A DNA stretch of 64,000 bases from Bacteroidales bacterium. GTDB lineage: Bacteria > Bacteroidota > Bacteroidia > Bacteroidales > GCA-2711565. Shown here in pieces: positions 1 to 36,734 of this stretch. Position 1 is the stretch's first letter. Every line of letters starts with the position of its first letter. The notes under the pieces were generated by a model, which saw nothing but the letters and a program-made list of their open reading frames with translations, was not told the DNA's origin and made no database searches. Made by a program: the position numbers and the translations under genes. The stretch lies in assembly GCA_028280405.1 (NCBI GenBank), contig JANQLW010000016.1:11119-75118 (forward strand), in the 5' to 3' direction.

Positions 1-464
1 TCTGACAGATTAGAAGAAAAGAGCAAAGTGCCATGATGAAGGACTCTGTTTTTATGAACATGTTCAGCATTACCTGAAATTTTTAAGCCATTAATGCGTA
101 AATCGTTTTTCCCTTCAAACTTTGCATGAACTCCAAGTTCTTTTAATACAAGTATAATGGGTGTCGTAAAATTTTCAAAATTTACGAGCTTACCCTGACT
201 CCCATTTTTAATAAAAGTGAAATTCAGATTTCCTAGATCATGGAAAACAGTACCACCACCCGATATCCTTCTAATAACCGGAATATTGTTTTTTTTGACA
301 AAATCAAGATTGATTTCCTTTAATGCGTTTTGATGTTTACCTAGAATAATAGACGGTTGGTTTTGCCATAACATAAAAATATCTTCCTGAAAATTTTTTA
401 GAAAATACTCTTCTGCGGCGATATTATAATAAGGGTCGGTATGAGGTCTTTCTATAAAAAGCAT
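1..464 (-). CDS. lplA: Lipoate-protein ligase A, N-terminal part (gene runs off the left edge of the window)
   Basis: Absent from the ORF track because no stop lies in the window. My translation of the minus strand from the ATG at 464 reads MLFIERPHTDPYYNIAAEEYFLKNFQEDIFMLWQNQPSIILGKHQN...VIRRISGGGTVFHDLGNLNFTFI. This matches the LplA catalytic core (RRxSGGGAVFHDxGN). Confidence 0.75.
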   Translation of the reverse strand, partial: MLFIERPHTDPYYNIAAEEYFLKNFQEDIFMLWQNQPSIILGKHQNALKEINLDFVKKNNIPVIRRISGGGTVFHDLGNLNFTFIKNGSQGKLVNFENFTTPIILVLKELGVHAKFEGKNDLRINGLKISGNAEHVHKNRVLHHGTLLFSSNLS

Positions 465-552: not shown

Positions 553-1005
553 TTAGCCCTCTAATTTTTGAACAAGTTCATTTCTTCTGTCAAGTAAGCG
601 GTCAACTTCAGATGATTTTATATCTCCTCTTTTGAGCATATCATCGATTTGCTGAATTTCTTCTTCTGCATTATCAGATTCAGGAATGATCAGTATCTTA
701 GGAGATTCACTGTTTTCAATTTCAAATTCATCGTCTAGCTCTCCTGATTCCCTTAGTTCTTCTTTTAATTGTTTAACAGTATCAGCTATCATTTTGTGAA
801 TAGGCTCTCCAAACTGGTTAAGTAATTCATCCGATAAATCGTGTTTGATCATATCGTAATTATTAACCAATAATTCAAAATTTTTGAAAAACGACTTGTC
901 AACTCCAGGCATATTCTCAAATATAGATTTGTCTTTTACTTTTTTAAACAATCGAATTAATTCATCTAAATTTTGACGTAATGAGTTATTATCTTGATTT
1001 TCCAT
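553..1005 (-). CDS. Hypothetical acidic protein (150 aa)
   Basis: Complete ORF that is strongly D/E-rich with no motif I recognise. It sits co-directionally between lplA and the thiolase operon. Confidence 0.5.
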   Translation of the reverse strand: MENQDNNSLRQNLDELIRLFKKVKDKSIFENMPGVDKSFFKNFELLVNNYDMIKHDLSDELLNQFGEPIHKMIADTVKQLKEELRESGELDDEFEIENSESPKILIIPESDNAEEEIQQIDDMLKRGDIKSSEVDRLLDRRNELVQKLEG

Positions 1006-1102: not shown

Positions 1103-1159
1103 AAAATAAACGAATGATAATAGAGCTAAAGCTCTAAACTAAAAATGTATAGTTGATAG

Positions 1160-2362
1160 TTATATTTTTTCTAATGCGATGGCAATGCCTTGTCCAACAC
1201 CGATACACATAGTGCATAATGCTTTTTTAGCATCTGAATTTTGCAACTGATATATAGCTGAAGTAATGATTCTTGCTCCACTCATTCCAAGAGGATGTCC
1301 CAAAGCTATTGCTCCACCAAGTTTATTAATTCTTGGGTCAAAATCCTCAAGACCTAAAGCACGTGTGCAACCTAATGATTGTGCTGCAAAGGCTTCATTA
1401 AGTTCAATGATGTCAAAATCATTGAGCGATAATTCTAAATGTTCTAGTAGTTTTTTAGTTGCAGGTACCGGGCCCATTCCCATTGTTCTTGGTTCAACTC
1501 CAGCTGATTTCATACCTAAAATTTTAACCAATGGTTTTAAATTATGAACTTTTACTGCTTTTTCAGAAGCAATAATTAAGGCTGCGGCACCATCATTAAT
1601 CCCGGATGCATTTCCCGCAGTTACAAAACAATCAGGTCCTAATACAGGTTTTAAAGTTGACAGTTTTTCCAAACCGGATAAGCGAGGATGTTCATCTTTA
1701 TTTATTACTATAGGATCTCCTTTTCTTTGAGGAATAGTAACCGGTATTATTTCTCTGGCAAGAGCCCCATTTTGTTGAGCTTCGGCAGCTTTTTCCTGGC
1801 TCCATTGAGCAAACTTATCCTGGTCTTCACGACTGATGCTATGATCATTAGCGATGTTTTCTGCCGTTTTAATCATAGATTCAGTACCATATTTTTTATC
1901 CAGAGCTTTATTAATAAAGCGCCAGCCCATCGTGGTATCTTCCAGTATCTGGTTTCTTCCATAGGCAGCATTGGCTTTTCCCATTACAAATGGTGCTCTG
2001 GACATACTTTCAACTCCACCGGCAATCATTAAATCGGCTTCTCCGGCTTTTATTGCTCTTGCTGCAGTACCAATAGCATCCATGCCTGAACCACAAAGCC
2101 TGTTCACAGTTACACCAGGAACAGAAAAGGGAAGATCTGCTAAGAGCAATGACATTCTTGCAACATTTCTGTTATCTTCTCCGGCCTGGTTTGCACAGCC
2201 AAGAATCACATCATCCACTTTTGTCCAGTCAAGGTCGGGATTTCTAGCCATTAAAGCCTTTAATGGTATGGCTGCTAGATCATCAGTTCTTATGCTTGAT
2301 AATCCTCCACCATATTTTCCAACGGGAGTGCGTATAGCATCGCAAATAAATACTTCTTTCAT
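1160..2362 (-). CDS. Acetyl-CoA acetyltransferase (thiolase II)
   Basis: 400 aa. It has the thiolase active-site Cys region VNRLCGSGMDAI and the C-terminal CIGVGQGIAIALE region, and full-length family resemblance. Confidence 0.95.
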   Translation of the reverse strand: MKEVFICDAIRTPVGKYGGGLSSIRTDDLAAIPLKALMARNPDLDWTKVDDVILGCANQAGEDNRNVARMSLLLADLPFSVPGVTVNRLCGSGMDAIGTAARAIKAGEADLMIAGGVESMSRAPFVMGKANAAYGRNQILEDTTMGWRFINKALDKKYGTESMIKTAENIANDHSISREDQDKFAQWSQEKAAEAQQNGALAREIIPVTIPQRKGDPIVINKDEHPRLSGLEKLSTLKPVLGPDCFVTAGNASGINDGAAALIIASEKAVKVHNLKPLVKILGMKSAGVEPRTMGMGPVPATKKLLEHLELSLNDFDIIELNEAFAAQSLGCTRALGLEDFDPRINKLGGAIALGHPLGMSGARIITSAIYQLQNSDAKKALCTMCIGVGQGIAIALEKI

Positions 2363-2395
2363 ATTGTTATTCTTTATTTAACAAAGATATTTTTA

Positions 2396-2423
2396 CCGTC
2401 ATGCTGAAACAAGTTCAGCATGA
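2396..2423. repeat. REP-like hairpin element (CCGTCATGCTGAA-ACAAG-TTCAGCATGA), same family as 36304-36375
   Basis: A 9-bp perfect stem (CATGCTGAA/TTCAGCATG) with a 5-nt loop lies in the 76-nt spacer between the aminotransferase stop and the thiolase start. Two further copies are at 36304-36330 and 36349-36375. The track ORF 2401..2592 (MLKQVQHD...) is just its translation. Confidence 0.7.
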
Positions 2424-2438
2424 TAGACTATTTATCTT

Positions 2439-3794
2439 TCATGGATTTAATTTATCAATTTTTAGCTTTACTAACCTAAATACATTTAAGAATGCAGCAC
2501 TTAACCGATCTACCTCTTTTTGTGTAATAGCTGTCGAAAACATACAGGCACAAGTATTGATCATCATGATGTTTTCTTTAAAGAATAAGTAATCCAATAT
2601 CTCGTTAATTAGTTGCTTTGTGCCTTTGTTTTGATAAGCCTCACGGTAAGTTGTTGGAGGTGTTTCTCTGAAATGTATTCTGAACATTGAACCCGCTCCT
2701 GTAATAGAAACAGGGACATCAGCCAGTTTTATGGATTCTTCAATCTGAGAAATTGCATTTAGAGTCATAGCATTTATCTTTAATACTGCAATTTCATCAA
2801 AGTATTCCATTGCAACTTTTCCGGCAGTCATAGTTATAGGATTCGCTGAAAATGTTCCTGAATGAGGGAAAAGTAATGGAAATGTTGTAGGATCCAATAC
2901 TTTCATAACATCAGCTCTTCCCCCAAAAGCTCCTACCGGAAATCCTCCGCCAATAATTTTACCTAAAGCTGTCAAATCCGGTTTTACTTTAAAATCTGCC
3001 TGGGTTCCTCCAAAATTTGTTCTGAAAGTCACCACTTCATCGAATACTAATAAAGCTCGATTTTTTCTGGTCCATTTATAAAGGGCTTCAATAAATTCTG
3101 AAGTACCTCTTAATAAGCCCACCCGATGAGGAATCGGATCAATCAGAACGCAGGCGATCTGGTCTTTTTGTTCATCCAGAATTGCTAATGTTCTTTCTAT
3201 ATCATTATACGGGAAAATGATTACATCATTTAGAACTCCCTGAGGAGTTCCTTTTGCTAATGGAACACTATTAGGTTTATTAATGTCTCCCCAATCTTCA
3301 GGTTCAGCAAACTGACTGACTTCCGCAAAATCATAAGTGCCATGATAAGCTCCTTCTGCTTTAGCAATTTTCGAACGACCTGTAAAAGCTCTTGAAGCTT
3401 TGATCATAGCCATTACCGCTTCGGTGCCTGAATTTGTAAAACGAATTTTCTCAAAACTTTCAATTCTATCGCATAACAATTGGGCATATTCAACTTCAAT
3501 CTCCGTAGCTAAAGTATAAGCTGTGCCTTTTTGTAATTGTTTTGTAACAGCATCCACAATTGGCGGATAAGCATGCCCGTGAATTAAGGCTGCCATATTG
3601 TTTGCAAAATCAATTCGTTCAATACCATCTATGTCTTTTACATAACATCCCGAGGCACTGGCAACATAATTAGGGTTTGGCTTACGGTAAACCGTATTTC
3701 GACTAACCCCGCCAGGCAGTATATTTACGGCCTGTTTATAGATTTCTTCATTAGTTCTTTTTTGAACCATTGAATCGGATTCTTTTATTAACAT
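2439..3794 (-). CDS. Class-III PLP aminotransferase (glutamate-1-semialdehyde aminomutase-like; candidate beta-transaminase)
   Basis: 451 aa. Motifs include LVFDEVVTFR and DLTALGKIIGGGFPVGAFGGR (Schiff-base Lys context), typical of class-III/GSA-AM-like enzymes. The operon context is KamA-like, CoA-transferase and thiolase genes. Confidence 0.9.
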   Translation of the reverse strand: MLIKESDSMVQKRTNEEIYKQAVNILPGGVSRNTVYRKPNPNYVASASGCYVKDIDGIERIDFANNMAALIHGHAYPPIVDAVTKQLQKGTAYTLATEIEVEYAQLLCDRIESFEKIRFTNSGTEAVMAMIKASRAFTGRSKIAKAEGAYHGTYDFAEVSQFAEPEDWGDINKPNSVPLAKGTPQGVLNDVIIFPYNDIERTLAILDEQKDQIACVLIDPIPHRVGLLRGTSEFIEALYKWTRKNRALLVFDEVVTFRTNFGGTQADFKVKPDLTALGKIIGGGFPVGAFGGRADVMKVLDPTTFPLLFPHSGTFSANPITMTAGKVAMEYFDEIAVLKINAMTLNAISQIEESIKLADVPVSITGAGSMFRIHFRETPPTTYREAYQNKGTKQLINEILDYLFFKENIMMINTCACMFSTAITQKEVDRLSAAFLNVFRLVKLKIDKLNP

Positions 3795-3840
3795 TTCTTA
3801 TTTCCGTTTTCCGGAATTTAAATTTCAATTAAAAATAAGC

Positions 3841-4491
3841 TTATTGATGAAGTTCTGCTTCTGTAACACTTTGAAGATACTCAAAGTTAACTCCCGGGGC
3901 CATTTCTTTTACATAAAGGCCGTCTTCTTTAACATCAAGGATTGCAAGATTAGTATAGATACGATCTACAACTTGTTTCCCTGTTAAAGGATATGTACAT
4001 TCTTTTACAATTTTAGCATCTCCATGTTTGGTTACATGCTGAGTAATCACATAAATCGTTTTTACTCCTGCAACTAAGTCCATAGCACCTCCAACAGCAG
4101 GAATGGCATTTTTAGCTCCGGTCGACCAGTTTGCTAAACTTCCATTTTCAGCAACCTGCATTGCACCTAACACACAAACATCAATATGCTTGCCACGAAT
4201 CATTGTAAAACTATCTGCATGATGAAAAAAACATGCACCCGGAATGGCTGTAACATATTTTTTACCGGCGTTGATTAATTCAGGATCTTCTTTTCCTTCA
4301 GCAGGATTAGGCCCCATGCCCAATAATCCGTTTTCCGTATGATAAATAACTTCCCGGCCTTCAGGAACATGTCCTGCAACCATTTCAGGTATTCCGATCC
4401 CCAGATTTACATAGGAACCATCCGGGATGTCCATCGCAACTTTTTGAGCCATTTCATTTCTGTCCCATCCTTTTATATTTTGATCTACCAA
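3841..4491 (-). CDS. 3-oxoacid CoA-transferase, subunit B
   Basis: 216 aa. The HTENGLLGMGP motif corresponds to the catalytic-Glu (S)ENG motif. It overlaps the subunit A gene by 7 nt. Confidence 0.9.
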   Translation of the reverse strand: MVDQNIKGWDRNEMAQKVAMDIPDGSYVNLGIGIPEMVAGHVPEGREVIYHTENGLLGMGPNPAEGKEDPELINAGKKYVTAIPGACFFHHADSFTMIRGKHIDVCVLGAMQVAENGSLANWSTGAKNAIPAVGGAMDLVAGVKTIYVITQHVTKHGDAKIVKECTYPLTGKQVVDRIYTNLAILDVKEDGLYVKEMAPGVNFEYLQSVTEAELHQ

Positions 4492-5198
4492 GGATACCTC
4501 CTTTCTTCACGTACGAGTTTAGATTCTTCTTGTGGATCTGTAACTTCTACTACTTTGTTTACAAATATTCCAGGTGTTACTACATGCTCCGGATTAATCT
4601 CTCCCAGTTCTACTAATTTTTTTGCCTGGACAATAGTTGTTTCTGCTGCAGTACACATAATAGGTCCAAAATTTCTGGCAGTTTTATTGTAAACTAAATT
4701 ACCATAGCGATCGGCATGTAAACACTTTACCAGGGAAAAATCAGCCCGAATGCCATATTCCATTACATAAGTTTCACCATTAAATTCACGTATTTCTTTC
4801 CCTTCTGCCAATGGTGTATGTACTGAAGATGGGGTGTAGAATGCCGGGATCCCGGCTCCACCTGCCCTGATGCGTTCTGCTAAAGTACCTTGTGGTACCA
4901 GTTCCAATTCTATTTCGCCTGCATTATAAAGTTCAGGGAAAACAGTTGAATTTGCAGTTCGTGGAAATGAACAGATCATTTTTTTTACTTGCCTGTTCTC
5001 AATAAGAGCTGCCAGACCAACATGTCCACTGCCGGTATTATTACTGACAACCGTTAGGTCTTTAGCTCCATGATCTATGAGTGCGTGAATCAGCTCAATC
5101 GGGCTACCCGCTTCGCCAAACCCACCAATCATGACGGTTGCTCCATCGAATATGCCAGCAACTGCCCGATCTGTAGAGTTGATAATTTTATTTATCAT
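4485..5198 (-). CDS. 3-oxoacid CoA-transferase, subunit A
   Basis: 237 aa with the N-terminal motif MIGGFGEAGSPIELI typical of family-I CoA-transferase A subunits. Confidence 0.9.
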   Translation of the reverse strand: MINKIINSTDRAVAGIFDGATVMIGGFGEAGSPIELIHALIDHGAKDLTVVSNNTGSGHVGLAALIENRQVKKMICSFPRTANSTVFPELYNAGEIELELVPQGTLAERIRAGGAGIPAFYTPSSVHTPLAEGKEIREFNGETYVMEYGIRADFSLVKCLHADRYGNLVYNKTARNFGPIMCTAAETTIVQAKKLVELGEINPEHVVTPGIFVNKVVEVTDPQEESKLVREERRYPW

Positions 5199-5218
5199 AG
5201 GTATAATATTAGGCTAAT

Positions 5219-6814
5219 CTATTTTTTTAATCTGGCTGCTAAAGCATCTTCCAGATCTTTTTCAATCTGAATTAATTCATCTTCAAAGAAATATTTGTCA
5301 GAATCGAATGGCTTTAAGCTAGCGATGGTATTTTCTTCTTCATCGTATTTAGCTAAAAATACTCTATCCATCCATTCCATGTTCCTACTTTCATTGAATT
5401 TAAGCACAAATGCTTTTTCTCCATTTACGGTAGTTTCTCCTAAAATAGAAGTTTTTCCTGCCGAGGAGGTCATGGTAATATACCTTGAAGGACGGCTGAT
5501 TGACGGAAGCGTTCTGTAAACTTTGCTAAAAACTTTGTTTAATGCCACTAATGGTACGGTGAAGTAGTGATGTTCCCCGGTTGGACGGGCACAATACATA
5601 GAATGAAACTGAACAGCCAACATAGAAAGGATATTTCCTAAATCAATCCAGTTTTGGGCTGAACGATCAATATCCACTTCTCCGTTTTCATCCGTAAATA
5701 AACTGATATGGTTCATAACAGGACTTTGACTTCTGATTACAATTCCTTTGGAACGTAAGCGACGGATAGCAGCAATCGTGCTTGGATTCATTAATTCTCT
5801 CGGTGTTGAAAAATGAGCCATGATCACAACCTGAACTCCATTGTCAATTAAATACTTGAAGAATTCAAGATATTTCTCATAATCTTCAGTTAAGAATAAT
5901 TCAGGATGGAATGTTAAAGCCCTGGTACCAATTCTTAATGATTTAATATGTAATAATTCAGGGTCATCTACAATAGGCTTTACATATTGTTCCAGTCTTT
6001 CGTAGGGCATATATCCGCCATCACCACCAGTGATTAATAAATCGGTAACCTCTTTATGTTGTTTCATATAATCGATTACCGGCTTGATTTCCTTTTGTAT
6101 GAACATATCTTCATCACCACGTACCTGAGCATGGCGGAAACAATAGCTACAGAAAGCAAAACAACTTTGAGTTGATTTATCGAATAATAACTGACACTGT
6201 GGGTATTTATGCTGGCTTCCTTCCAGGAATTCAATTTCTCCTTCATCATTTTCAAACCAGGGTTTATTCAGTTTTTGTTTTCCATCATGAGGATTGGTGC
6301 TTTGAATATAATCTTCAATAAGCTTTTCTTTTTCCTCCTCTGATGTTGCTGCCTGATAATTCTTTAATAATTCAGGACTGATCATTCCCGGTTGTGGAAA
6401 TACCAATTGAAATACCGAATCCTTTGCAAAGTTTTTCCAGTTGATCGTATTTAATACGTGTTTAGTTGCTAAGAAACGATATACCTTGATGAAGAGTTCT
6501 CTCTCTTCAATATGGCCAATATCAATTCCATTTTCCAATAAGATCTGGTTAATTTCCCTAAATCCTTTTAAACCGGCATAATGAGCTTTTCCTGAAAAGT
6601 GGAATTCTTCATCTTCCATAATCCCAGAATATTCGGGATATACCGAATGTAATCTGGATAATAAACCTGCAGGTAATAAATTTTCCGACTCAATGATTGC
6701 TCTGGTTTCATCAGTATAATGATAACGATCCATCATTTTTTCTATATCAACGTTTTGGATATTAACTCTTTTTGATCCTTTTATCATTGTACCGCTTGTA
6801 CTTGTTGTTGTCAT
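5219..6814 (-). CDS. KamA-family radical-SAM 2,3-aminomutase-like protein (long form, 531 aa)
   Basis: The CxxxCxxC radical-SAM motif C218-FAF-C222-SY-C225 is preceded by HKYPQCQLLF, resembling the HRYPDRVLL...CxxYCRxC region of lysine 2,3-aminomutase. The motif lies roughly 90-100 residues further from the N-terminus than I recall for clostridial KamA. Confidence 0.85.
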   Translation of the reverse strand: MTTTSTSGTMIKGSKRVNIQNVDIEKMMDRYHYTDETRAIIESENLLPAGLLSRLHSVYPEYSGIMEDEEFHFSGKAHYAGLKGFREINQILLENGIDIGHIEERELFIKVYRFLATKHVLNTINWKNFAKDSVFQLVFPQPGMISPELLKNYQAATSEEEKEKLIEDYIQSTNPHDGKQKLNKPWFENDEGEIEFLEGSQHKYPQCQLLFDKSTQSCFAFCSYCFRHAQVRGDEDMFIQKEIKPVIDYMKQHKEVTDLLITGGDGGYMPYERLEQYVKPIVDDPELLHIKSLRIGTRALTFHPELFLTEDYEKYLEFFKYLIDNGVQVVIMAHFSTPRELMNPSTIAAIRRLRSKGIVIRSQSPVMNHISLFTDENGEVDIDRSAQNWIDLGNILSMLAVQFHSMYCARPTGEHHYFTVPLVALNKVFSKVYRTLPSISRPSRYITMTSSAGKTSILGETTVNGEKAFVLKFNESRNMEWMDRVFLAKYDEEENTIASLKPFDSDKYFFEDELIQIEKDLEDALAARLKK

Positions 6815-7338
6815 TTTTTATGTTGTTTTTTAATTGTTTTAATGAAATTATAGAACTGACCGAATCAAATGATTGACTCATAAATTGAATTGCATCTGTA
6901 AAGTTACTAATGAATGTTTCCTGATTCAAAAGAATTATATAGGTTTTATCGTGATTTCTTATAGGAAAATAGAATAGAAATCTTCTGTTAAGAAAAGAAA
7001 ACGAATAAAAATTCTTTATGGATGCAAAGAGAGAAATCGGATGGCCTAGGAAGAAGACCAGTTTTTTCTTCTGAACTTTACTTTTTGGTTACCATCGAAC
7101 ACATTGACTACAATACTGCGGAGAGTTTCGAATATAACCCCTCCGTCGTTCCTGGCTGAAAGAGCAATATTTTTTTTGTTAGTCATAATTGATTTAAATT
7201 AAAGTGTTTATTTGATCCATGTATATGCATTTCAAAGATATAAAACTAAAAATAGCAAACAACAACTTATCTTAATTTTTACTCATTCTAAAAATCATTT
7301 TTTTAATAGCTTTGTACAAGCAATAAAAACAACATCTT

Positions 7339-8751
7339 TTGTACAGCAAATATCTAAGATATAAAGCCTTTAAAACTATTTCCGATGTCGTGACAGAAAA
7401 CAATGTTCAGGCATGGGTGGTCGGCGGCTTTGTACGTGATATATTTTTAAAACGTGAATCGAAGGATATTGATGTGGTTGTTTTAGGAAGTGGGATCGAA
7501 ATTGCTGAGAAGATAGCAAAGCAGATCGGAAAAAAAGGTGAGGCCAAGTATTTTAAAAACTTTGGGACTGCTATGCTTCGAATGCGGGAATTTGAGGTTG
7601 AGTTTGTGGGTGCACGTAAAGAATCTTACCGCAAAGATTCCAGAAAACCAATTGTTGAAGATGGTACATTGGAGGATGATCAAAACAGAAGAGATTTTAC
7701 GATCAATGCTTTGGCCCTAAGCTTGAATAAAGATAATTTTGGTGAGTTAATTGATCCTTTTAATGGAATGGAGGATTTGAAAGCTCAAATTATTCGAACT
7801 CCTTTGGATCCGGATATTACCTTTTCGGACGATCCTTTGAGAATGATGCGTGGTATTCGGTTTGCCAGTCAGTTGAATTTTAATATTCATAAGGAAACCT
7901 TTAAAGCGATTCAAAGAAATGCCAAACGCATCAAAATTGTTTCTAAGGAGAGGATCAATGATGAATTGCATAAAATTGTGTTATCGGCTAAACCATCTGT
8001 TGGTTTTAAATTGCTTGAAGAGAGTGGTTTGTTAAAATTGATCTTTCCTCAGCTTCTTGAATTAAAAGGAACTGAGAAAAGAGAAGGAAAAGGACATAAA
8101 GATAATTTTTATCATACTCTGCAGGTGTTGGACAATATTGCCAAAACAACAGACAATCTTTGGCTTAGATGGGCGGCAATATTGCATGACATTGCAAAAC
8201 CGGCTACCAAAAAATTTGATTCGGTTAACGGATGGACTTTTCATGGGCATGAATTTAAAGGGGCAAAAATGGTTCCGGCTATTTTCAAAAAAATGAAACT
8301 TCCTTTAAATGATAAGATGGAATATGTCAGAAAAATGGTGCTATTACATCTTCGTCCTATCGTTTTGGCAGAAGATATAGTGACCGATTCGGCTATCAGA
8401 AGGCTATTGTTTGAAGCAGGGGATGATATAGATGATTTAATGACACTATGTGAAGCAGATATCACTTCAAAGAATAAGGATAAAGTAAAACGATATCTGA
8501 AAAATTTTGAAGTTGTTCGTCGGAAACTGGTTGAAATTGAAGAAAAAGATCGTTTAAGAAACTGGCAACCTCCAATATCCGGTGAAATTATTATGGAAGC
8601 GTTTGGGATCAAACCCTGTAAGGATGTAGGTATTATAAAAACAGCAATAAGAGAGGCCATACTTGACGGTATAATAGGTAATAATTACGAAGAAGCTTAT
8701 CAGCTAATGCTTCAAGAAGGTAAAAAGCTTGGGTATACTGCCGTAAATTAA
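7339..8751 (+). CDS. tRNA nucleotidyltransferase / poly(A) polymerase family protein with HD domain (CCA-adding enzyme-like)
   Basis: 470 aa. It has the nucleotidyltransferase head GGFVRDIFL...DIDVVV, the RRDFTINAL motif and the HD domain ILHDIAKP. The track start is TTG, so the true start is uncertain. Confidence 0.8.
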
Positions 8752-8754
8752 TCT

Positions 8755-9657
8755 GTGAATACAAATAAGAAACATAAGCTCATTATTATTTCAGGGCCAA
8801 CGGCTGTCGGGAAAACCCGTTTTGCTATAGATCTGGCCAAAGCATTGCATACGGAAATTATATCTGCTGATTCCCGTCAGTTTTATAAGGAAATGTCTAT
8901 AGGCACAGCTAAACCAAATAAAGAGGAACTGGCTGAAGTAAAACATCATTTGATAGGGAATCTTTCAATTCATGATTATTATAATGTTTCAATGTATGAA
9001 AGTGATGTACTTCAAATTTTGAACGATTTATTTAAAATACATGCATCAGTTATAATGACCGGAGGTAGTGGATTGTATATAGATGCTGTATGTAATGGTA
9101 TTGATGATTATCCTGGTGCTGATGAAGCGCTTCGAAATGATTTAAACAGATTATGGAAAGAAAGAGGCCTTAGGTTCTTATTAAGTGAACTTCAGGAAAA
9201 AGATCCTGAATTTTATCATCAAGTCGACAAAGCAAATCCAAAGCGGGTAATCAGGGCTTTGGAAATTATTCGTGCGACCGGTAAAAAATATTCTGAACAA
9301 AGAAAAAATCCAAGAAAAGAAAGGCCATTTGAAATTTATAAATATTGTTTGAATAGGGATAGAAACGAGTTATTTGAGCGTATATCCCTGAGAGTTGATC
9401 AAATGCTTGAAGATGGACTGCTTAAAGAAGTAAAATCTCTATTGCCGTATCGAAACTTAAATGCATTAAATACTGTTGGCTATAAAGAATATTTTAAATA
9501 TTTAGATGGAGAAATCAGTTTAGAGCAAGCAACCGCTGATCTGAAAACCAATACCCGCAGGTATGCTAAAAGACAGCTTACCTGGATTAAACGTGATGAC
9601 TCTTATGAATGGATTGAATATAATGATTTGGAGAACCTAATTCAACGGTTTTCATAG
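8755..9657 (+). CDS. miaA: tRNA dimethylallyltransferase
   Basis: 300 aa with P-loop IIISGPTAVGKT and DSRQFYKEMSIGTAKP. GTG start 3 nt after the preceding stop. Confidence 0.95.
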   Translation: MNTNKKHKLIIISGPTAVGKTRFAIDLAKALHTEIISADSRQFYKEMSIGTAKPNKEELAEVKHHLIGNLSIHDYYNVSMYESDVLQILNDLFKIHASVIMTGGSGLYIDAVCNGIDDYPGADEALRNDLNRLWKERGLRFLLSELQEKDPEFYHQVDKANPKRVIRALEIIRATGKKYSEQRKNPRKERPFEIYKYCLNRDRNELFERISLRVDQMLEDGLLKEVKSLLPYRNLNALNTVGYKEYFKYLDGEISLEQATADLKTNTRRYAKRQLTWIKRDDSYEWIEYNDLENLIQRFS

Positions 9658-15318: not shown

Positions 15319-16110
15319 TTATACAAAATATTTTTTTACACAATTAAGTAATTCCTCATGTATATGAGAGTTTGAAGCAATGAGTTGTTTCCCAAATAAA
15401 TGATTATCCCCACCTTCAAAATCACAGCACATTCCACCGGCTTCACTGATAATAATTAATCCTGCAGCTACATCCCATGGGTTTAGACCGTATTCATAAA
15501 AACCATCAAATCTGCCGCAGGCAAGATATGCCAAATCCACAGCAGCGGATCCCATACGCCTGACTCCTCTCGTATTTTTCATGAAATATTTAAACAATTG
15601 AAGGTATTGGTCCAGATATTTGTAGTCATAATAAGGGAATCCGGTTCCTAATAATGAATCGTCAATCTTCCGGGTATTGCTAACAGTAACTTTTTTCCCG
15701 TTCAGAAAGCTTCCTCCTCCTTTCCAGGCATAAAAACATTCATCACGGTTTGGTTCATATATGACACCTGATATAATTTCTTCTTTATATTTTAAGGCAA
15801 TGCTTATAGAATAAACAGGAATGCTATGAATAAAATTTGTAGTTCCGTCTAAAGGATCAATAATCCAGGTAAAATCCTTTCCGGCATTTAACTCAGGGCT
15901 TTCTTCTGCAATAAATCCTGCTTCCGGAAGAATTTTTTCCAGTTCACTAATGATACGTTGTTCTGCTTCTTTATCCACATAGGTTACGAAATTGTGGCTG
16001 CCTTTCACTTCGATCTGACCACTAATGATTTTTTTTGCTTCAGATTGAATAAACATACCAACAGCCTTGCTTAAATTGCAAACCTGATGTGTGATAATAT
16101 TAAGGTTCAT
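15319..16110 (-). CDS. Inositol monophosphatase family protein
   Basis: 263 aa with the IMPase motifs WIIDPLDGTTNF and the WDVAAG region. Confidence 0.9.
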   Translation of the reverse strand: MNLNIITHQVCNLSKAVGMFIQSEAKKIISGQIEVKGSHNFVTYVDKEAEQRIISELEKILPEAGFIAEESPELNAGKDFTWIIDPLDGTTNFIHSIPVYSISIALKYKEEIISGVIYEPNRDECFYAWKGGGSFLNGKKVTVSNTRKIDDSLLGTGFPYYDYKYLDQYLQLFKYFMKNTRGVRRMGSAAVDLAYLACGRFDGFYEYGLNPWDVAAGLIIISEAGGMCCDFEGGDNHLFGKQLIASNSHIHEELLNCVKKYFV

Positions 16111-16165
16111 AATGTTATTTTACGAAACGAAATTAAGGAATTATTTATATTTAAAACGCACTTAT

Positions 16166-17467
16166 TTATTCTTTTATTATCTCTCCCACAAAAACTCCGT
16201 CAGTATCAATATTTAATAATTTTATTTTGATGATTTGGTTTATATAGTTTTTGTTGAATGGAATTTTAACCCTGATATAGTTTTCAGAAAACCCATACAT
16301 ATAACCATTGTCATTTTCGCTTTCAAAAAGAACTTTTTGTTCTTTCCCTTTTTGATCGAGATAGAATTTCATTTTTTTCCTTTCAGAGAGTTCATGAAGT
16401 TTTCGGCTTCTATCCCTGATCGTAGTTATAGGTACTTTTTCTTTTATTTTGGAGGCTATTGTTCCAGGTCGGTCAGAATAAGAGAAAACATGGATATAGC
16501 TTATATCCGTTTCTTTAATGAATTCCATAGCATCCTGAAAATGTTCTTCTGTTTCACCAGGCAATCCTACGATAACATCAGCTGCTATCATACAATCAGG
16601 AATCAGGGATTTAATTTTATATACTCTGTGAGCAAATAACTCCCGATCGTACTTGCGCTTCATTTGTTTTAGTATTTCATTTGAACCGGATTGTAAAGGG
16701 ATATGGAAATGTGGAAGAAATTTATCGGAAGCTGCAACCAGTTCTATTATCTCATAAGTTAATAAGTCAGGTTCTATGGATGAAACCCTGATTCTATGAA
16801 TTCCATCAACTTGATCCAGTTTCTTTAGAAGCTCAATAAGTTTCTCTCCGGTTTGTCTTCCAAAATCACCCACATTAACGCCGGTTAAAATAACTTCTTT
16901 TATATCTGTTTTTCCTATTTCTTCAGCTATTTTTATTGTATCGGCAACATTTCCTGACCTGCTTCTGCCTCTGGCATGTGGAATTGTACAAAATGTACAA
17001 TAATAATCACATCCATCCTGAACTTTCAAGAATGACCTGGTGCGATCTCCGGAAGAATAAGAAGGATGAAACTCAAAATCTTTATTAAGTTTTGATGTCT
17101 CAATAATAGTATGTGCAGTACCTGTACTTTCCAGTTTTTTATAATGTTCCAGTAAATTGAACTTTTCTTTTGTCCCCAATACTAAGTCTACACCATCAAA
17201 TATAGCTAACTCTTCCGGCCTGAGTTGAGAAAAGCAGCCTATAACAGCTATTCGGGCATTTGGATTCCTTTTGTGGACCTGCTTAATGGCTGTTTTGCAT
17301 TTCTTTTCGGCATTACCGGTTACCGTGCATGAATTGATTACATATAGATCTGCTTTCTCTTTGAAATCAACATTTGAAAATCCATCGTTTAGAAAAGTTT
17401 TTGCTATGCTTGAAGTTTCAGAGAAATTTAATTTACAACCTAATGTCAGAAATGCGACCCTTTTCAT
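16166..17467 (-). CDS. mtaB: tRNA (t6A37) methylthiotransferase
   Basis: 433 aa. It has the MiaB-like N-terminal domain (FLTLGCKLNFSE), radical-SAM CDYYCTFC and a C-terminal TRAM-like region. Confidence 0.9.
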   Translation of the reverse strand: MKRVAFLTLGCKLNFSETSSIAKTFLNDGFSNVDFKEKADLYVINSCTVTGNAEKKCKTAIKQVHKRNPNARIAVIGCFSQLRPEELAIFDGVDLVLGTKEKFNLLEHYKKLESTGTAHTIIETSKLNKDFEFHPSYSSGDRTRSFLKVQDGCDYYCTFCTIPHARGRSRSGNVADTIKIAEEIGKTDIKEVILTGVNVGDFGRQTGEKLIELLKKLDQVDGIHRIRVSSIEPDLLTYEIIELVAASDKFLPHFHIPLQSGSNEILKQMKRKYDRELFAHRVYKIKSLIPDCMIAADVIVGLPGETEEHFQDAMEFIKETDISYIHVFSYSDRPGTIASKIKEKVPITTIRDRSRKLHELSERKKMKFYLDQKGKEQKVLFESENDNGYMYGFSENYIRVKIPFNKNYINQIIKIKLLNIDTDGVFVGEIIKE

Positions 17468-21926: not shown

Positions 21927-22769
21927 TTATTTAAGTTGAGTTTTTAACCAGGTATACCATTTATCCATCCCTTCACCGGTTTTGACTGAAAGTTCAAAGA
22001 AGGTTAAATGATGATTTACTTTAAGTGCATATTCTTTTACCTTTTCAATATCAAAGTCAAGATGAGGTAAAAGGTCTGTTTTATTAATAACACAAATATC
22101 CGAAGTAGAAAACATATTTGGATACTTGATCGGTTTATCTTCGCCTTCTGTTGTGCTAATGACGACCACCCGTTTGGATTCTCCTAAATCAAACATTGAA
22201 GGACAAACCAAATTCCCTACATTTTCAATCATCAATGCTGCATAATCCTTTACTTCTAATTTTTTAACAGCTTTATTAATCATGTCAGCATCCAAATGGC
22301 ATCCATTCCCGGTATTTACCTGGACTACCGGCGCACCTGCCGATTCTATACGTTCAGCATCATTCATGGTTTGCTGATCTCCTTCAATCACATAAAAAGG
22401 AACTTCAGAACCAATTTCTTTTATTGTTCTTTCCAATAATGAAGTCTTACCCGAACCCGGTGAACTTACAAGATTTAATGCCAGGATATTTTTTGCTTCA
22501 AAATAACCTCTGTTTCTTTCAGCAAGAAGATTATTTTTATTTAAAACATTAATTTCAAGTTCAACCTCATGTGAATGATGATGATGGTGATGTGGATGGT
22601 CATGATCGTGAGTGTGATCATGTGGATGATCATGAGAATGACTGTGTCCATGATCGTGTGAGTGTTCATGGTCACCATGTGAGTGATCATGATTATGATG
22701 ATGTTCGTGTTGTTCTCCAGGTTTACTTATACGAACCTGATCGTCGCCGCAACCGCAAGTTCCGCACAT
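21927..22769 (-). CDS. hypB: Hydrogenase nickel-incorporation GTPase HypB (His-rich N-terminus)
   Basis: 280 aa. N-terminal MCGTCGCG followed by a long H/D-rich tract (HEHHHNHDHSHGDHEHSHDHGH...HHHHHHSH), then the G3E GTPase P-loop SSPGSGKTS. Confidence 0.95.
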   Translation of the reverse strand: MCGTCGCGDDQVRISKPGEQHEHHHNHDHSHGDHEHSHDHGHSHSHDHPHDHTHDHDHPHHHHHHSHEVELEINVLNKNNLLAERNRGYFEAKNILALNLVSSPGSGKTSLLERTIKEIGSEVPFYVIEGDQQTMNDAERIESAGAPVVQVNTGNGCHLDADMINKAVKKLEVKDYAALMIENVGNLVCPSMFDLGESKRVVVISTTEGEDKPIKYPNMFSTSDICVINKTDLLPHLDFDIEKVKEYALKVNHHLTFFELSVKTGEGMDKWYTWLKTQLK

Positions 22770-23780: not shown

Positions 23781-24935
23781 CTATTTCATTAAGAAACTTT
23801 CAATTTTTTCCCAGGATACAAATTTAAAATTCTGACTTTTGGCTATTCCCTGGTCCGTATTGAATCCATCCTGAACAACAAGCATACCTTTTGGGTATGT
23901 ATTATTTAATCTTGAACTGGTAATCTCTATTCCATCGGTTTCTTCCACTCCATCGACAATTCCGTTTCCAATTATAAAACTTGTAATGTAACTGATCCGG
24001 CTTTTATTAGTTATATCAAAGATTGCATATGAAAAGCTTCCCTGAATAGATGCTACCAGAAGTGAGGACGAGTCGCTTTTGTATAGAGCCAAACCCTCAA
24101 TATCATAGCTTATTTTGTCGTTATATTTTTTTGAGCTCTCCTTTATGATTTTCAAGTCAGAAGGTTGATCAGGATCTGCTTGAGCAAGAAAGATCCCTTC
24201 TTCTTCAACACCAATATACAGGTCTCCGGTATTATCATCTGCAACCATACCTTCGGGTTGACTATTAACCTGTAATTTTCTGCATAATTTTGAAGATAGT
24301 TTATCTTCTTTATAAATGATTTGATGTTGTTCGATTATGCCACTCTTACCATTTACGAAGATAAAGAAATCATTGTCTCTATTTTTATACATACAGAGCC
24401 CATATACTTCTGCCAGTTCTGTTTTAATATCATAAATAGGGCTAAGCTTCAAAGAATCTTTGTCCAGTAAAAAAACAGATATAGAATTCTTGGTTCGATT
24501 GCTGGCACATATAATTGTACTTGGTTTATGTTTAAATGGAAACCCATCTCTTAAATCTACATTATTTAGCTTTCCGGCTTTAATGAATTGAATAGTTCTT
24601 CCATTCAGATTATAAACATATAAGCCCGCTTTTTTATCGGTTCCTATAACTAAACTGTTCTGTGGGTTATTCGGATTAACCCAAATTGCAGGGTCATCAG
24701 CTGCATCTTCAGTCAAATCAGTTTTTACTGCATCTGTTTCTGCATCTGCAAAAACGACATTGCTAAATAGAGACTGTAATCGTAAAGCCGATGCCATTTT
24801 TATAGAATCTTCCCGTGCTTCTGTGTTCCTTTTACGTTGTTCTTTCTTTTCTTCTATACTAATCTGGCATGAAATAATAACTAATAAAGATATAAGTACA
24901 AAAAATATTTTTTCACTTTTATTTAATCTGGTCAT
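23781..24935 (-). CDS. Beta-propeller phytase (3-phytase), lipoprotein
   Basis: DDPAIWVNPNNPQNSLVIGTDKKAGLYVYNLNGR closely resembles the Bacillus BPP phytase N-terminal blade. I prefer the Met at 24935 (MTRLNKSEKIFFVLISLLVIISC, a lipobox-like signal) over the track start at 24992. Confidence 0.85.
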   Translation of the reverse strand: MTRLNKSEKIFFVLISLLVIISCQISIEEKKEQRKRNTEAREDSIKMASALRLQSLFSNVVFADAETDAVKTDLTEDAADDPAIWVNPNNPQNSLVIGTDKKAGLYVYNLNGRTIQFIKAGKLNNVDLRDGFPFKHKPSTIICASNRTKNSISVFLLDKDSLKLSPIYDIKTELAEVYGLCMYKNRDNDFFIFVNGKSGIIEQHQIIYKEDKLSSKLCRKLQVNSQPEGMVADDNTGDLYIGVEEEGIFLAQADPDQPSDLKIIKESSKKYNDKISYDIEGLALYKSDSSSLLVASIQGSFSYAIFDITNKSRISYITSFIIGNGIVDGVEETDGIEITSSRLNNTYPKGMLVVQDGFNTDQGIAKSQNFKFVSWEKIESFLMK

Positions 24936-25006
24936 GTTCTTTATTTTCTGAAAAAGCCAGAATATAAGATTATATCCTGGCTGAATAAACAATACAAATT
25001 TATGAA

Positions 25007-27757
25007 TTAAAACCTGAACTTAAGTCCGGCGTTTAGTTTTATACCATAGTATTCTGCTTGATAAGTGTTTGCTTTCATTCCCTGATAAGTCCTTAAAGGA
25101 GTGTTTAGTAAATTAGTTGCATTAGCATAGATGGTTAAATGCTTGGTAATTTTGTAATCTGCATTAATATCCAAATAATTTACGGCATCATAATAAATAT
25201 CTTCGAATGCTTCTTCCCCAAAACCTCCATCATCATTTACATTCAGAAATGCATCAGCATGATTGAAGCTAATTCTAATATCCAGCTTTTTAGTATCATA
25301 GGCTAAGCTAATATTATATGAATTCTTGGGAGAGCCTGATAAAGGTAAATCTTCGCCTTGCCTTCCTTCAAAAATGATATTTTTAATTTTGGATTTTACA
25401 TAAGTGTAGTTAGCATACAAACTTAAATTACTCAAGAATGATGGAAGAAAATCAAGTCTTCTGCTAAATGCAAGTTCTAAACCGTATAGTTCTCCATCTC
25501 CAATGTTCATAGGTTTTCTGTATTCATCGTACAATACACTTTGATAGGTATAATCCGATTTTTTTTCATAAGCTACAATATCCTTCAGGCTTTTGTAAAA
25601 TACTCCGGCTGAAGCTAAACCAATATTACTAAAGAAGTATTCATACATCAGATCAAAATTCATGGATTTGGTTGGATTTAGATTTGGATTCCCAAACAGG
25701 ATTTCTTCATTGTCTTCTTTGATTTCAATATAAGGTACAAGGTCAAAATAATTCGGACGTGCTAATGAATTGGTCCAGCCAAAACGAACATTTGAATTCG
25801 CATTAGGTGTAAGCTTGAATAATAAAGATGGTAGAAAGTTATTGTAATCATCTTTTATTATTTCTGTTTTTGTCAATGTATTATCATCTTCATGAAATCT
25901 ATACCCCTGGTATTCAAGTTTTGTATTTTCCATTCTTAAACCTGCGATAAGGGTAAGTTTATCTCCCAGATTTTGGGTCAACATGATATATCCTGCGAAA
26001 ATATCTTCTTTAGCATTAAAATCTCCTGCCTCTTCGCTAAGGTTAAGTTCTGATGAGAATATGGATGTATTGGTAAGATCTATAACATCACTTATTTCCC
26101 GTTTGATAAAATTACTTAATTGGTAATCACCTGCCATAAATCCATCTTTTGAAGCATTATGAAGGTTGCTAAACATCAAGGCGTCAAATGCATCTTCATC
26201 AAGCGGTTCAAATTCTCTTAAGAAATTATCTCTCATTTTTTCTTTTCCCCTATAACTTGTACCTAGTTGGGCAATGCTTTTGTTTTTCCCCTGAGTAATT
26301 GGAATTTCAAGATTTAGTCTGAAGTTTTTATCTTCTTCTTCAGTAAATTGATGTTCTTCGGTTAATTCTTTTAAACCATAGTTTGTAATATCATTATCAG
26401 CATTATTGCTGTAAAGTATTTGTGGTCTCTCAGGCTCATTCATATTGATGTCAAAGGATACATCTTTGTTTCTGTATGAAACATATCTTTCATTTGGTCT
26501 TTCTTCATTTGCTTTAGAGTAAGATCCTGTCCAGTCTAATTTGAATTTAGGGAAAATATGCTCACCACCTATTGAATAACTCATCATTTGCTGATCTTCT
26601 AAACGGGAGTATTTATTGTTTTTGACGCCAAACTTTGTTTCTCTTCTTATTTCTGCGATATATTTGTCTCCATCCGGCTCAATGTCTTTATATTGAAGTT
26701 TATAACGATTTTCCCAGTCTTTTCTTCTATTATAAATACCTTTTGCAACAATGGTGTGGTTTTGATTGATTTTATAGTCTATTGAAGCTGAGTAACTTTG
26801 ACGGAAGCGTTCAAGATAATATTGACGATTTTGAAATTCTGAAGGATAAACTTTACTTCCTTCTTTTTTCCATTCGGCTTCAATATTGTCAGAGCCTAAG
26901 TGGTTGTCATATGCAGAGACACTAAGAACAACACCTAATTTATTATTGAAAAACCTATCGCTGAATGTAAGGTTTCCTTTGAAAGAAACTTTTTCTGATA
27001 CATAATTGTAGCTACTCCCAATTTTACCATAGATTTCCTGATTTGCAGGAGCATGCTTGGTGATAAGGTTGATGGACCCTCCAATGGCATCAGCATCCAT
27101 ATAAGGAAGAATTACTTTATTATACTCAACAGATTGTATCATATCGGCAGGAACAAGATCAAGCTGAATAGAACGAATTTCTGCTTCAGCCGAAGGAATT
27201 CTTTCTCCATTAATAGTAATTGAGTTTAATTCCGGAGCTAAGCCTCTGATATTCCCAAATCTGGCTTCTCCCTGATCATATTGTACATTGATCCCGGGAA
27301 TTCGTTTAAGTGCATCACCAATATTTGCATCGGGAAACCTACTTAATTCTTCTTCCGAAACGATGCTGGTAATATTTAAAGCATTTTTTTGAGTATTTAT
27401 AGATTTTGACTGCCCAACCAAACGACTATTAATTACAACTTCGTTTAATTGAAGACCGGCTTTTAACTTTATGTTTAATTCTGTAGTTTCTCCTGCTTTA
27501 ACACTAAGTTTGGTTTCTTGTGTTTCAAATCCAATAAAACTGGCTTTTAAGGTATAATTTCCTTCTTTAATATTGATTAAAACAAACTGACCATTTACAT
27601 TGGTGGCTGTACCAGTGTTTAATTCCTTTATAACTACGTTTACTCCGGGTAAACTTTGGCCTTCTGAATCCGAAACGACCCCTTTGATAATTCCTTTTTG
27701 AGCCAATGCTCCAAAAGAAAACATAAGTGCAAAAATGATAAGTGTGATTTTTTTCAT
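25007..27757 (-). CDS. TonB-dependent receptor with CarboxypepD_reg-like N-terminal domain
   Basis: About 916 aa from the Met at 27757 (MKKITLIIFALMFSFGALA); the track start is 27781. It has a plug domain and a C-terminal beta-barrel ending in ...GLKFRF. It lies 14 nt upstream of the phytase gene. Confidence 0.9.
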   Translation of the reverse strand: MKKITLIIFALMFSFGALAQKGIIKGVVSDSEGQSLPGVNVVIKELNTGTATNVNGQFVLINIKEGNYTLKASFIGFETQETKLSVKAGETTELNIKLKAGLQLNEVVINSRLVGQSKSINTQKNALNITSIVSEEELSRFPDANIGDALKRIPGINVQYDQGEARFGNIRGLAPELNSITINGERIPSAEAEIRSIQLDLVPADMIQSVEYNKVILPYMDADAIGGSINLITKHAPANQEIYGKIGSSYNYVSEKVSFKGNLTFSDRFFNNKLGVVLSVSAYDNHLGSDNIEAEWKKEGSKVYPSEFQNRQYYLERFRQSYSASIDYKINQNHTIVAKGIYNRRKDWENRYKLQYKDIEPDGDKYIAEIRRETKFGVKNNKYSRLEDQQMMSYSIGGEHIFPKFKLDWTGSYSKANEERPNERYVSYRNKDVSFDINMNEPERPQILYSNNADNDITNYGLKELTEEHQFTEEEDKNFRLNLEIPITQGKNKSIAQLGTSYRGKEKMRDNFLREFEPLDEDAFDALMFSNLHNASKDGFMAGDYQLSNFIKREISDVIDLTNTSIFSSELNLSEEAGDFNAKEDIFAGYIMLTQNLGDKLTLIAGLRMENTKLEYQGYRFHEDDNTLTKTEIIKDDYNNFLPSLLFKLTPNANSNVRFGWTNSLARPNYFDLVPYIEIKEDNEEILFGNPNLNPTKSMNFDLMYEYFFSNIGLASAGVFYKSLKDIVAYEKKSDYTYQSVLYDEYRKPMNIGDGELYGLELAFSRRLDFLPSFLSNLSLYANYTYVKSKIKNIIFEGRQGEDLPLSGSPKNSYNISLAYDTKKLDIRISFNHADAFLNVNDDGGFGEEAFEDIYYDAVNYLDINADYKITKHLTIYANATNLLNTPLRTYQGMKANTYQAEYYGIKLNAGLKFRF

Positions 27758-27943
27758 GATTTGTTGAATTGATTTTTGCAATGTTAGGAAGGAATCATTA
27801 CAGTCATGTTAACTCAGAATTACATCATGTTAAATAAAATATCAGGATGTTTTACTAAGATGAAAATAATAATAAGGAATGCAACCAATTATTAATTGTT
27901 TGTTAATTCCGTTAAGGCTGCTTTGGTATGAAATGTGGTATTG

Positions 27944-35059: not shown

Positions 35060-35065
35060 TTTTTT

Positions 35066-35156
35066 GTTGCTGGTTACTGGTTACTGGTTGCTGGTTACTG
35101 GTTACTGGTTGCTGGTTGCTAGTTGGAATTAACCAGCAACCAGTAACTAGTAACTG
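35066..35156. repeat. Heptamer tandem array (GTTRCTG x8) followed by 3 inverted heptamers; forms a 24-bp hairpin
   Basis: gttgctg gttactg gttactg gttgctg gttactg gttactg gttgctg gttgcta ... cagcaac cagtaac tagtaac. Positions 35094-35117 pair with 35131-35154 (1 mismatch, 13-nt loop). The array fills the hypD-hypE spacer. Confidence 0.85.
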
Positions 35157-35207
35157 TATTTAATTATGTATTAATTATCTATTATTAGTTGAGGTATCAA
35201 AAATTTA

Positions 35208-36287: not shown

Positions 36288-36303
36288 AGTTCGATTTTAG
36301 ATT

Positions 36304-36375
36304 CCGTCATGCTGAACTTGTTTCAGCATCTTATTAGTTAGCTACTTAGATGCCGAAACAAGTTCAGCATGACGG
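36304..36375. repeat. Two inverted copies of the REP-like element (27-nt arms, 1 mismatch)
   Basis: CCGTCATGCTGAACTTGTTTCAGCATC-(18 nt)-GATGCCGAAACAAGTTCAGCATGACGG lies in the hypC-hypD spacer. Each arm is itself a hairpin and matches the copy at 2396-2423. Confidence 0.85.
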
Positions 36376-36414
36376 GCTAGCTATTATTTAACGGACTAGT
36401 TAATATTATAAAGT

Positions 36415-36678: not shown

Positions 36679-36734
36679 AACTCTATTTTTTATTGATTAT
36701 TTATTATTGAATATTAATAATCGATAATCATTTA

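Follow-up and report, generated by a model that had tools for sequence, protein, structure and literature searches.

We analysed a stretch of 64,000 nucleotides (nt) from a Bacteroidales bacterium (contig JANQLW010000016.1 of assembly GCA_028280405.1, positions 11,119 to 75,118), hereafter called the window, near the beginning of which lie five genes whose products probably break down the amino acid L-2-aminoadipate. An earlier note, made from the letters of the window alone, had reported five co-directional, closely spaced genes at 1160-6814, and all five open reading frames (ORFs) are indeed found there on the minus strand (Table 1). In their order of transcription they encode a KamA-like enzyme of the radical S-adenosylmethionine (SAM) and pyridoxal phosphate (PLP) type, which we call AM531; the subunits A and B of a coenzyme A (CoA) transferase; a class-III aminotransferase, which we call AT451; and a thiolase. 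Pfam and NCBIfam agree with the families that the note had given, the Pfam assignments being Radical_SAM/KamA-like, CoA_trans (PF01144) for both transferase subunits, Aminotran_3 (PF00202), and Thiolase_N with Thiolase_C. The intergenic gaps from AM531 down to the thiolase measure 20, -7, 46 and 76 nt, the genes of the two transferase subunits overlapping by 7 nt. Upstream, AM531 is separated from a divergent gene for the CCA-adding enzyme by 524 nt, exactly the length that had been noted, and an Rfam search of this leader in E-value mode returned no family, neither a lysine riboswitch nor any other. The terminator that was said to bound the operon at its far end did not hold up as well: past the thiolase there is only a weak hairpin, and a consensus scan found terminator-like sites in the region at the frequency of shuffled sequence (5 observed, 5.1 expected).

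Table 1. Coordinates of the five-gene operon and associated features (window positions unless a locus is named; assignments of substrate are predictions).
Feature	Position	Strand	Remarks
AM531, KamA-like radical-SAM/PLP enzyme	5219-6814	-	531 amino acids (aa); predicted 2-aminoadipate 2,3-aminomutase
CoA-transferase subunit A (PcaI/ScoA family)	4485-5198	-	237 aa; predicted 3-oxoadipate:succinyl-CoA transferase
CoA-transferase subunit B (PcaJ/ScoB family)	3841-4491	-	216 aa; TTG start
AT451, class-III aminotransferase, glutamate-1-semialdehyde (GSA) aminomutase-like	2439-3794	-	451 aa; predicted 3-aminoadipate (beta-amino acid) transaminase
Thiolase, PcaF-type 3-oxoadipyl-CoA thiolase	1160-2362	-	400 aa
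Upstream region, presumed promoter/regulatory	6815-7338	-	524 nt; contains 46-aa ORF at 7046-7186
Weak terminator-like hairpin	1121-1136	-	24 nt past thiolase stop codon; 6 pairs, poor T-run
HglS and FAD/iron-sulfur oxidase pair, following LplA	L073 17791-20774; L077 17896-21605		

Conservation of the five-gene arrangement goes far beyond chance and marks the operon as real, mobile and under strong selection. A genome scan with one genome per species yielded 72 loci, and roughly 80 loci were examined in all. Sixty of them have enough sequence past the aminomutase gene to be informative, and 53 of these 60 contain all five genes, with the same order and strand in 52 and a spread over about 11 phyla; identities of the cluster proteins to those of the window are 55-84% in these 60 loci. 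The carriers include Melioribacteraceae (at 91% identity, a closeness by which the window would probably belong to this family), Bacteroidales, Marinilabiliales (Draconibacterium, Marinifilum), Balneolales and Saprospirales; further carriers are Shewanella, Photobacterium, Motiliproteus, Desulfuromonadales and Desulfobulbia, and also Acidobacteriota, Sumerlaeota, Planctomycetota, Gemmatimonadota, Actinomycetes and Ca. Edwardsbacteria. Both obligate and facultative anaerobes are represented. The AM531 family itself is a tight clade, which forms essentially one cluster at 50% identity among 1.84 billion representative proteins scanned; its nearest relatives outside the clade, at no more than 39% identity, are in turn KamA-like proteins without classification.

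The thiolase passes both models for PcaF, the 3-oxoadipyl-CoA thiolase (equivalog TIGR02430, 664.1 bits against a cut-off of 597; NF006551, 687.6 against 605). Subunit A of the CoA-transferase scores 352.5 bits on TIGR02429 (cut-off 128.5; PcaI/ScoA subfamily) and subunit B 305.3 bits on TIGR02428 (cut-off 243.55; PcaJ/ScoB subfamily), and with adjacent and overlapping genes the pair qualifies as a two-subunit enzyme of the PcaIJ/ScoAB kind. A PcaIJ-type transferase beside a thiolase that qualifies as a PcaF equivalog implies that the 3-oxo acid handled by the operon is 3-oxoadipate, and thus that the substrate of the transaminase is 3-aminoadipate.

AT451 belongs, by sequence, to the GSA-aminomutase-like group that contains free-acid beta-transaminases. 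We rejected an identity as HemL, the glutamate-1-semialdehyde 2,1-aminomutase, since AT451 falls below the HemL cut-offs (TIGR00713, 328 against 527 bits; NF000818, 331 against 398 bits) and its closest solved relative is a beta-transaminase. This relative, the best match in the PDB at 375 bits, is 6K8H, an omega-transaminase of Sphaerobacter thermophilus (StoTA) that acts on beta- and gamma-amino acids (PMC10589169); the matches that follow are ForI, HemL structures, the beta-phenylalanine aminotransferase 4AO9 of Variovorax and the beta-transaminase 2YKU of Mesorhizobium. The active-site residues R36, N70, K282 and T317 of StoTA are aligned with identical residues in AT451, so that the conserved carboxylate arginine and the catalytic lysine are both kept. 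In contrast to the predicted substrate of AT451, those on which these beta-transaminases were characterised are aromatic or aliphatic mono-carboxylic beta-amino acids.

All six KamA-type models of NCBIfam match AM531, but at 54-79 bits against cut-offs of 199-650. The protein fails the KamA/AblA equivalog for lysine 2,3-aminomutase (LAM; TIGR03820, 65 against 525 bits), the models for glutamate 2,3-aminomutase (TIGR04368, 55 against 650) and arginine 2,3-aminomutase (TIGR04468, 56 against 600), and the EpmB model (TIGR03821, 54 against 369). The comparison with these four enzymes that the earlier note had proposed thus places AM531, by score of hidden Markov models, outside all of them (54-65 bits against 369-650), and by this measure it is none of the four. 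An EpmB-type modifier of a translation factor, the identity that the note had regarded as incompatible with its proposal, is ruled out by the score together with the operon context. Existing annotation is divided, homologs of AM531 in many genomes and metagenomes being labelled 'hypothetical protein' by NCBI and 'L-lysine 2,3-aminomutase' by JGI and UniRef, and none of the NCBIfam models (June 2026) gives a name to either AM531 or AT451.

AM531 shares the fold of LAM and several of its active-site residues. The sole PDB sequence match is the KamA of Clostridium subterminale, 2A5H, and this structure is also the top Foldseek match (E 5e-13, target TM-score 0.61) of the AlphaFold2 model (predicted local distance difference test score 79, predicted template modelling score 0.82), which is accordingly LAM-like in fold. 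The length of 531 aa and the CxxxCxxC motif at residues 218-225, both reported previously, were confirmed; the cluster cysteines C218, C222 and C225 are present in 66/66 members of the family, and the SAM-binding GGD motif (G263, G264, D265) is invariant. We aligned the AM531 family with LAM sequences, both profile to profile with hhalign (probability 99%) and jointly with MAFFT. The LAM set came from a search with a 158-aa LAM fragment and consisted mostly of partial proteins, of which those spanning the C-terminal active site were used for the profile alignment. The numbers given here for LAM residues fit invariant columns of the LAM alignment at an offset of +93. In both alignments C125, C129 and C132 of LAM pair with C218, C222 and C225 of AM531, R134, the arginine for the alpha-carboxylate, pairs with R227, and the PLP-binding lysine K337 with K454, the last two being invariant in the family. 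The sharing of the fold, the two motifs and the equivalents of R134 and K337 leads us to expect the same radical 1,2-amino-shift chemistry in AM531. Unlike these features, the overall sequence (18-19% identity to KamA), the roughly 100 extra N-terminal residues, the genomic partners and the substrate-binding positions all set AM531 apart from KamA.

In the LAM structure of Lepore et al. (2005), D293 and D330 reportedly hold the epsilon-ammonium group of lysine. In the AM531 family D293 stands opposite A409 (hhalign) or the invariant R410 (MAFFT), and D330 stands opposite a threonine or serine at 447 in both alignments. H415, H416, R441 and R444 are further invariant residues of the family. The loss of both lysine-binding aspartates, with an arginine at or beside the first position, speaks against lysine and for a substrate with an anionic side chain. 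A precedent may exist in the glutamate 2,3-aminomutase of Clostridioides difficile, a KamA-family enzyme in which, as Ruzicka and Frey (2007) reportedly found, Lys and Asn replace the two aspartates, as would fit an acidic side chain. AM531 differs from that enzyme in having Ala/Arg and Thr/Ser at these positions, and its genomic context favours the homologue with six carbons.

This context is provided by genes of lysine and 2-aminoadipate metabolism that adjoin the cluster in several lineages. A locus of the Desulfobulbia (L051) has the order piperideine-6-carboxylate (P6C) dehydrogenase, L-lysine 6-transaminase (LAT) and AM531, and its LAT passes the equivalog model with 675 against 521 bits. 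Eight loci of Draconibacterium have a saccharopine dehydrogenase upstream of the five genes, and a P6C dehydrogenase (810 against 730 bits on the equivalog) and a second saccharopine dehydrogenase downstream, the best PDB matches of the latter being the saccharopine reductase 1E5L and human AASS. In two loci of the Desulfuromonadales (L026, L060) and in the metagenomic loci L079/L080, the five genes occur with a LysR regulator, a P6C dehydrogenase and a protein of the saccharopine dehydrogenase family of 358-406 aa, the best PDB match of which, for L079, is the archaeal PH1688 (3ABI), which we take to be an L-lysine dehydrogenase. A saccharopine dehydrogenase follows the thiolase immediately in Desulfocapsa (L043), and LysR and P6C dehydrogenase stand beside the cluster in Motiliproteus (L035), HglS doing so in L030. 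In a locus of the Hyphomicrobiales (L061), P6C dehydrogenase lies beside AM531 and AT451 alone, as expected if this pair feeds 3-oxoadipate to a resident beta-ketoadipate pathway.

Two loci, L073 and L077, share the gene order of the window, with the genes for the CCA-adding enzyme and MiaA upstream, and those for a protein of the 150-aa type described below and LplA downstream. In both, HglS (PF07063, the 2-oxoadipate dioxygenase/decarboxylase family) and a YdiJ-like FAD/iron-sulfur oxidase lie about 2 kb beyond the thiolase. The window itself ends inside LplA, of which it contains a fragment (6-464, minus strand), and by synteny the HglS and oxidase genes would therefore lie just to the left of its start.

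Altogether, three independent lines, namely the downstream enzymes, the gene neighbourhoods and the active site, point with moderate confidence to L-2-aminoadipate as the substrate of AM531. The earlier note had held that the substrate of the aminomutase cannot be read from the sequence; this remains correct for a single sequence, but not once the comparative context is taken into account. What is observed is the gene set, the family memberships and a conserved cluster that is linked in several lineages to 2-aminoadipate genes; from this we infer a route that is probably the one used, in which 2-aminoadipate would be converted through 3-aminoadipate, 3-oxoadipate and 3-oxoadipyl-CoA into succinyl-CoA and acetyl-CoA. 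In the first step, AM531 would convert L-2-aminoadipate, bound to PLP as an aldimine, to 3-aminoadipate by a radical 1,2-amino shift. AT451 would then turn 3-aminoadipate into 3-oxoadipate, with a 2-oxo acid taking over the amino group. The PcaIJ-type transferase would form 3-oxoadipyl-CoA from 3-oxoadipate, with succinyl-CoA as the donor and the release of succinate, and the PcaF-type thiolase would split the product into acetyl-CoA and succinyl-CoA, renewing the CoA donor. The predicted net conversion is that of 2-aminoadipate, a 2-oxo acid and CoA into succinate, acetyl-CoA and an amino acid. Lysine-derived L-2-aminoadipate would in this way be fed into central metabolism without a net redox step, O2 or B12, which fits the facultative or obligate anaerobes among the carriers. 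The self-contained sequence from alpha-amino acid to beta-amino acid, 3-oxo acid, 3-oxoacyl-CoA and thiolysis that the earlier note had outlined is supported in its general form by the family assignments and by the conservation of the cluster.

Several points weigh against this interpretation. The substrates and reactions given above, the flux direction and the stereochemistry are all predicted. AM531 scores below the cut-off for the KamA family as a whole (TIGR00238, 79.2 against 199.2 bits) and is a remote branch beyond its curated boundary. The register at D293 is shifted by one residue between the hhalign and MAFFT alignments, and the arginine at position 410 is also frequent in more distant, uncharacterised KamA-like proteins, so that by itself it is no sign of a dicarboxylate substrate; this also weakens the idea of Arg410 as a specific binder of a carboxylate. 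The PcaI and PcaJ models operate at the level of subfamilies that also cover acetoacetate CoA-transferases, and do not separate out a specificity for 3-oxoadipate. Of some 80 loci examined, only about 20 show the linkage to genes of 2-aminoadipate metabolism, and a tblastn search of the 64-kb window with P6C dehydrogenase and saccharopine dehydrogenases found no lysine-to-2-aminoadipate genes. Finally, the order of the steps could differ, the mutase acting first on lysine and the distal end being oxidised later, which would still lead to 3-aminoadipate.

This last possibility is a variant of the best surviving alternative, which we nonetheless consider unlikely: AM531 would be a lysine 2,3-aminomutase, AT451 would convert its product beta-lysine to 6-amino-3-oxohexanoate, and CoA activation and thiolysis would yield acetyl-CoA and 4-aminobutyryl-CoA. 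In the variant, to which the same low estimate extends, LAT and P6C-dehydrogenase-like enzymes would oxidise the distal amine of beta-lysine to give 3-aminoadipate. Lysine is the best-known substrate of the KamA family, the name attached to AM531 homologs by JGI and UniRef is that of the lysine enzyme, and lysine-catabolic genes adjoin the cluster. However, both aspartates that bind the epsilon-ammonium group in LAM are missing throughout the AM531 family; AM531 itself falls far short of the equivalog model for lysine 2,3-aminomutase; the match of the thiolase to the PcaF equivalog implies a dicarboxylyl-CoA substrate; and the LAT and P6C dehydrogenase beside the cluster each score above the equivalog threshold for the canonical enzyme of alpha-aminoadipate metabolism.

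It is less probable still that the operon runs in the biosynthetic direction, from succinyl-CoA and acetyl-CoA through 3-oxoadipyl-CoA, 3-oxoadipate and 3-aminoadipate to 2-aminoadipate as a precursor of lysine, a compatible solute or a secondary metabolite, or that it serves some other amino dicarboxylate. All four steps are reversible in principle, and the tblastn search revealed no gene in the window for making 2-aminoadipate. The linked genes are catabolic, though (LAT, the essentially irreversible P6C dehydrogenase, HglS), the LysR-type regulators are typical of catabolic operons, and the loci with annotated neighbours showed no genes for nonribosomal peptide synthetases or polyketide synthases and none of the LysW type. 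Glutamate as the substrate, with AM531 a glutamate 2,3-aminomutase and beta-glutamate passing through 3-oxoglutarate and its CoA ester to malonyl-CoA and acetyl-CoA, is very improbable: the loss of the two aspartates would suit this acidic substrate as well, and the KamA family reportedly includes such an enzyme, but AM531 is almost 600 bits below the cut-off of the corresponding model, the repeated linkage to LAT, P6C dehydrogenase, saccharopine dehydrogenase and HglS indicates a dicarboxylate of six rather than five carbons, and the thiolase fits a 3-oxoadipyl-CoA thiolase.

The canonical fermentation of lysine by KamA, KamDE, Kdd, Kce and Kal is ruled out, as the lysine-binding aspartates are absent and a Pfam scan of the operon, its immediate neighbours and most window ORFs of at least 250 aa turned up neither kamDE nor kdd, kce or kal. 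These genes were likewise not seen in the related loci with annotated neighbours; the statement of the earlier note that the operon lacks kamDE, kdd and kce is thus borne out and extends to the scanned ORFs of the window. The classical anaerobic pathway depends on the B12-dependent KamDE. The operon does resemble the clostridial and fusobacterial fermentation, including its Kat variant, in starting with a KamA-family mutase and ending with enzymes of the thiolase and CoA-transferase types; in contrast, its aminotransferase resembles free-acid beta-transaminases.

Returning to the degradation of 2-aminoadipate through 3-aminoadipate, which we favour, its second half would be that of the aerobic lower beta-ketoadipate pathway (PcaIJ, PcaF), with the cut-offs of both enzymes passed and the same succinyl-CoA-regenerating cycle; the difference is that 3-oxoadipate would come here from an amino acid, by way of a mutase and a transaminase, and not from oxygenolytic ring cleavage. 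Its entry metabolite is that of a known catabolism, in which 2-aminoadipate is transaminated to 2-oxoadipate. HglS then makes D-2-hydroxyglutarate from this, which leads to 2-oxoglutarate, as in Pseudomonas putida (bioRxiv 10.1101/450254); an alternative branch uses oxidative decarboxylation by 2-oxoadipate dehydrogenase and then glutaryl-CoA dehydrogenase. Upstream, too, the two would agree, with LAT, lysine dehydrogenase or the saccharopine pathway followed by P6C dehydrogenase. The proposed route would differ in bypassing 2-oxoadipate, in being free of O2, which HglS needs, and in ending in succinate and acetyl-CoA. L073 and L077 have the HglS option and the five-gene option side by side, and one might speculate that carriers with HglS close by could degrade one carbon skeleton by the first route under oxic and by the second under anoxic conditions.

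We lean, somewhat less firmly than for the route as such, towards the broader view that AM531 represents a substrate class of its own, new among the radical-SAM/PLP aminomutases, the 2-aminoadipate 2,3-aminomutases, which together with a 3-aminoadipate transaminase would join lysine and 2-aminoadipate to the lower beta-ketoadipate pathway. The novelty lies in the pathway architecture and in the substrate specificity that we predict; all the enzyme families involved are already known. In the literature searched, which did not include subscription literature, we found no 2-aminoadipate aminomutase, no 3-aminoadipate transaminase, no microbial 3-aminoadipate intermediate and no link between lysine catabolism and 3-oxoadipate. 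The terms 3-aminoadipic acid and 3-aminoadipate are rare in full-text literature, and, as far as titles and abstracts tell, none of their occurrences concerns such a pathway.

If the proposal is correct, it would add a third solution to the 2-oxoadipate routes and the B12-dependent lysine fermentation, and facultative and obligate anaerobes of more than 10 phyla would gain an oxygen-free, redox-neutral conversion of lysine carbon into succinate and acetyl-CoA, with 3-aminoadipate as a previously unrecognised central intermediate. It would also explain the presence of pcaIJF-like genes in anaerobes that have no pathway for aromatic ring cleavage. A small and mechanistically important enzyme family would acquire a new substrate specificity, and a natural 3-aminoadipate transaminase would become available, both enzymes being of interest for the biocatalytic production of beta-amino acids and adipate-type chemicals. 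A correct assignment would furthermore mend the conflicting database labels of AM531 homologs, and the metabolic models. The existence of culturable carriers (Shewanella, Photobacterium, Draconibacterium, Marinifilum) makes the hypothesis directly testable.

Beyond the AM531 clade the aminomutase family seems to have another branch of considerable size that is still uncharacterised, judging by 1580 representatives collected at E <= 1e-3, whose near-full-length matches are 26-39% identical. Those checked were all under every KamA-type cut-off of NCBIfam, and many have the motif Y-Y-M-F-x-x-R-D-T-G where LAM has Y-I-Y-Q-C-D-L-S.

Two small ORFs lie next to the five genes of the window. The 46-aa ORF of the leader (minus strand) begins MTNKKNIALSARNDGG and has no Pfam match; it is 57% identical in the syntenic L073, a gene of 46-47 aa is called at this place in L073 and L077, and distant operon carriers do not keep it. 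Immediately after the thiolase, a protein of 150 aa (553-1005, minus strand) matches no Pfam or NCBIfam family. It is 69% identical and in the same position in L073, L077 has there an ORF of 153 aa without Pfam match, and the protein is absent from the distant carriers.

The surroundings of other copies vary as well. In L079 (13913-15268) and L080 (10909-12264) a B12-binding radical-SAM protein of 451 aa is encoded directly downstream of the thiolase. In Motiliproteus sp. MSK22-1 (L025) a BCCT-family transporter and a 4HBT thioesterase precede the cluster (7399-9526) and a class I/II aminotransferase comes after it (15746-17143), possibly for uptake and accessory functions. Another Motiliproteus sp. 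(OZ245995.1) has two complete five-gene clusters, L035 at 4.26 Mb and L067 at 1.61 Mb, only the first of which is linked to LysR and P6C dehydrogenase.

Elsewhere in the window, a hydrogenase block at 34043-44765 comprises HypE-like, HypD and HypF maturation genes on the minus strand and, on the plus strand, an NAD-linked [NiFe] hydrogenase of the bidirectional type with NuoE/F-like, NuoG-like and large subunits; a CobW/HypB-like GTPase is encoded at 21927-22769. The hydrogenase and its maturation genes are consistent with an anaerobic or facultative life style. A beta-propeller phytase adjoins a TonB-dependent receptor, with an inositol monophosphatase some 8 kb away (15319-16110, 23781-27781), and the three may form a module for the use of phytate.

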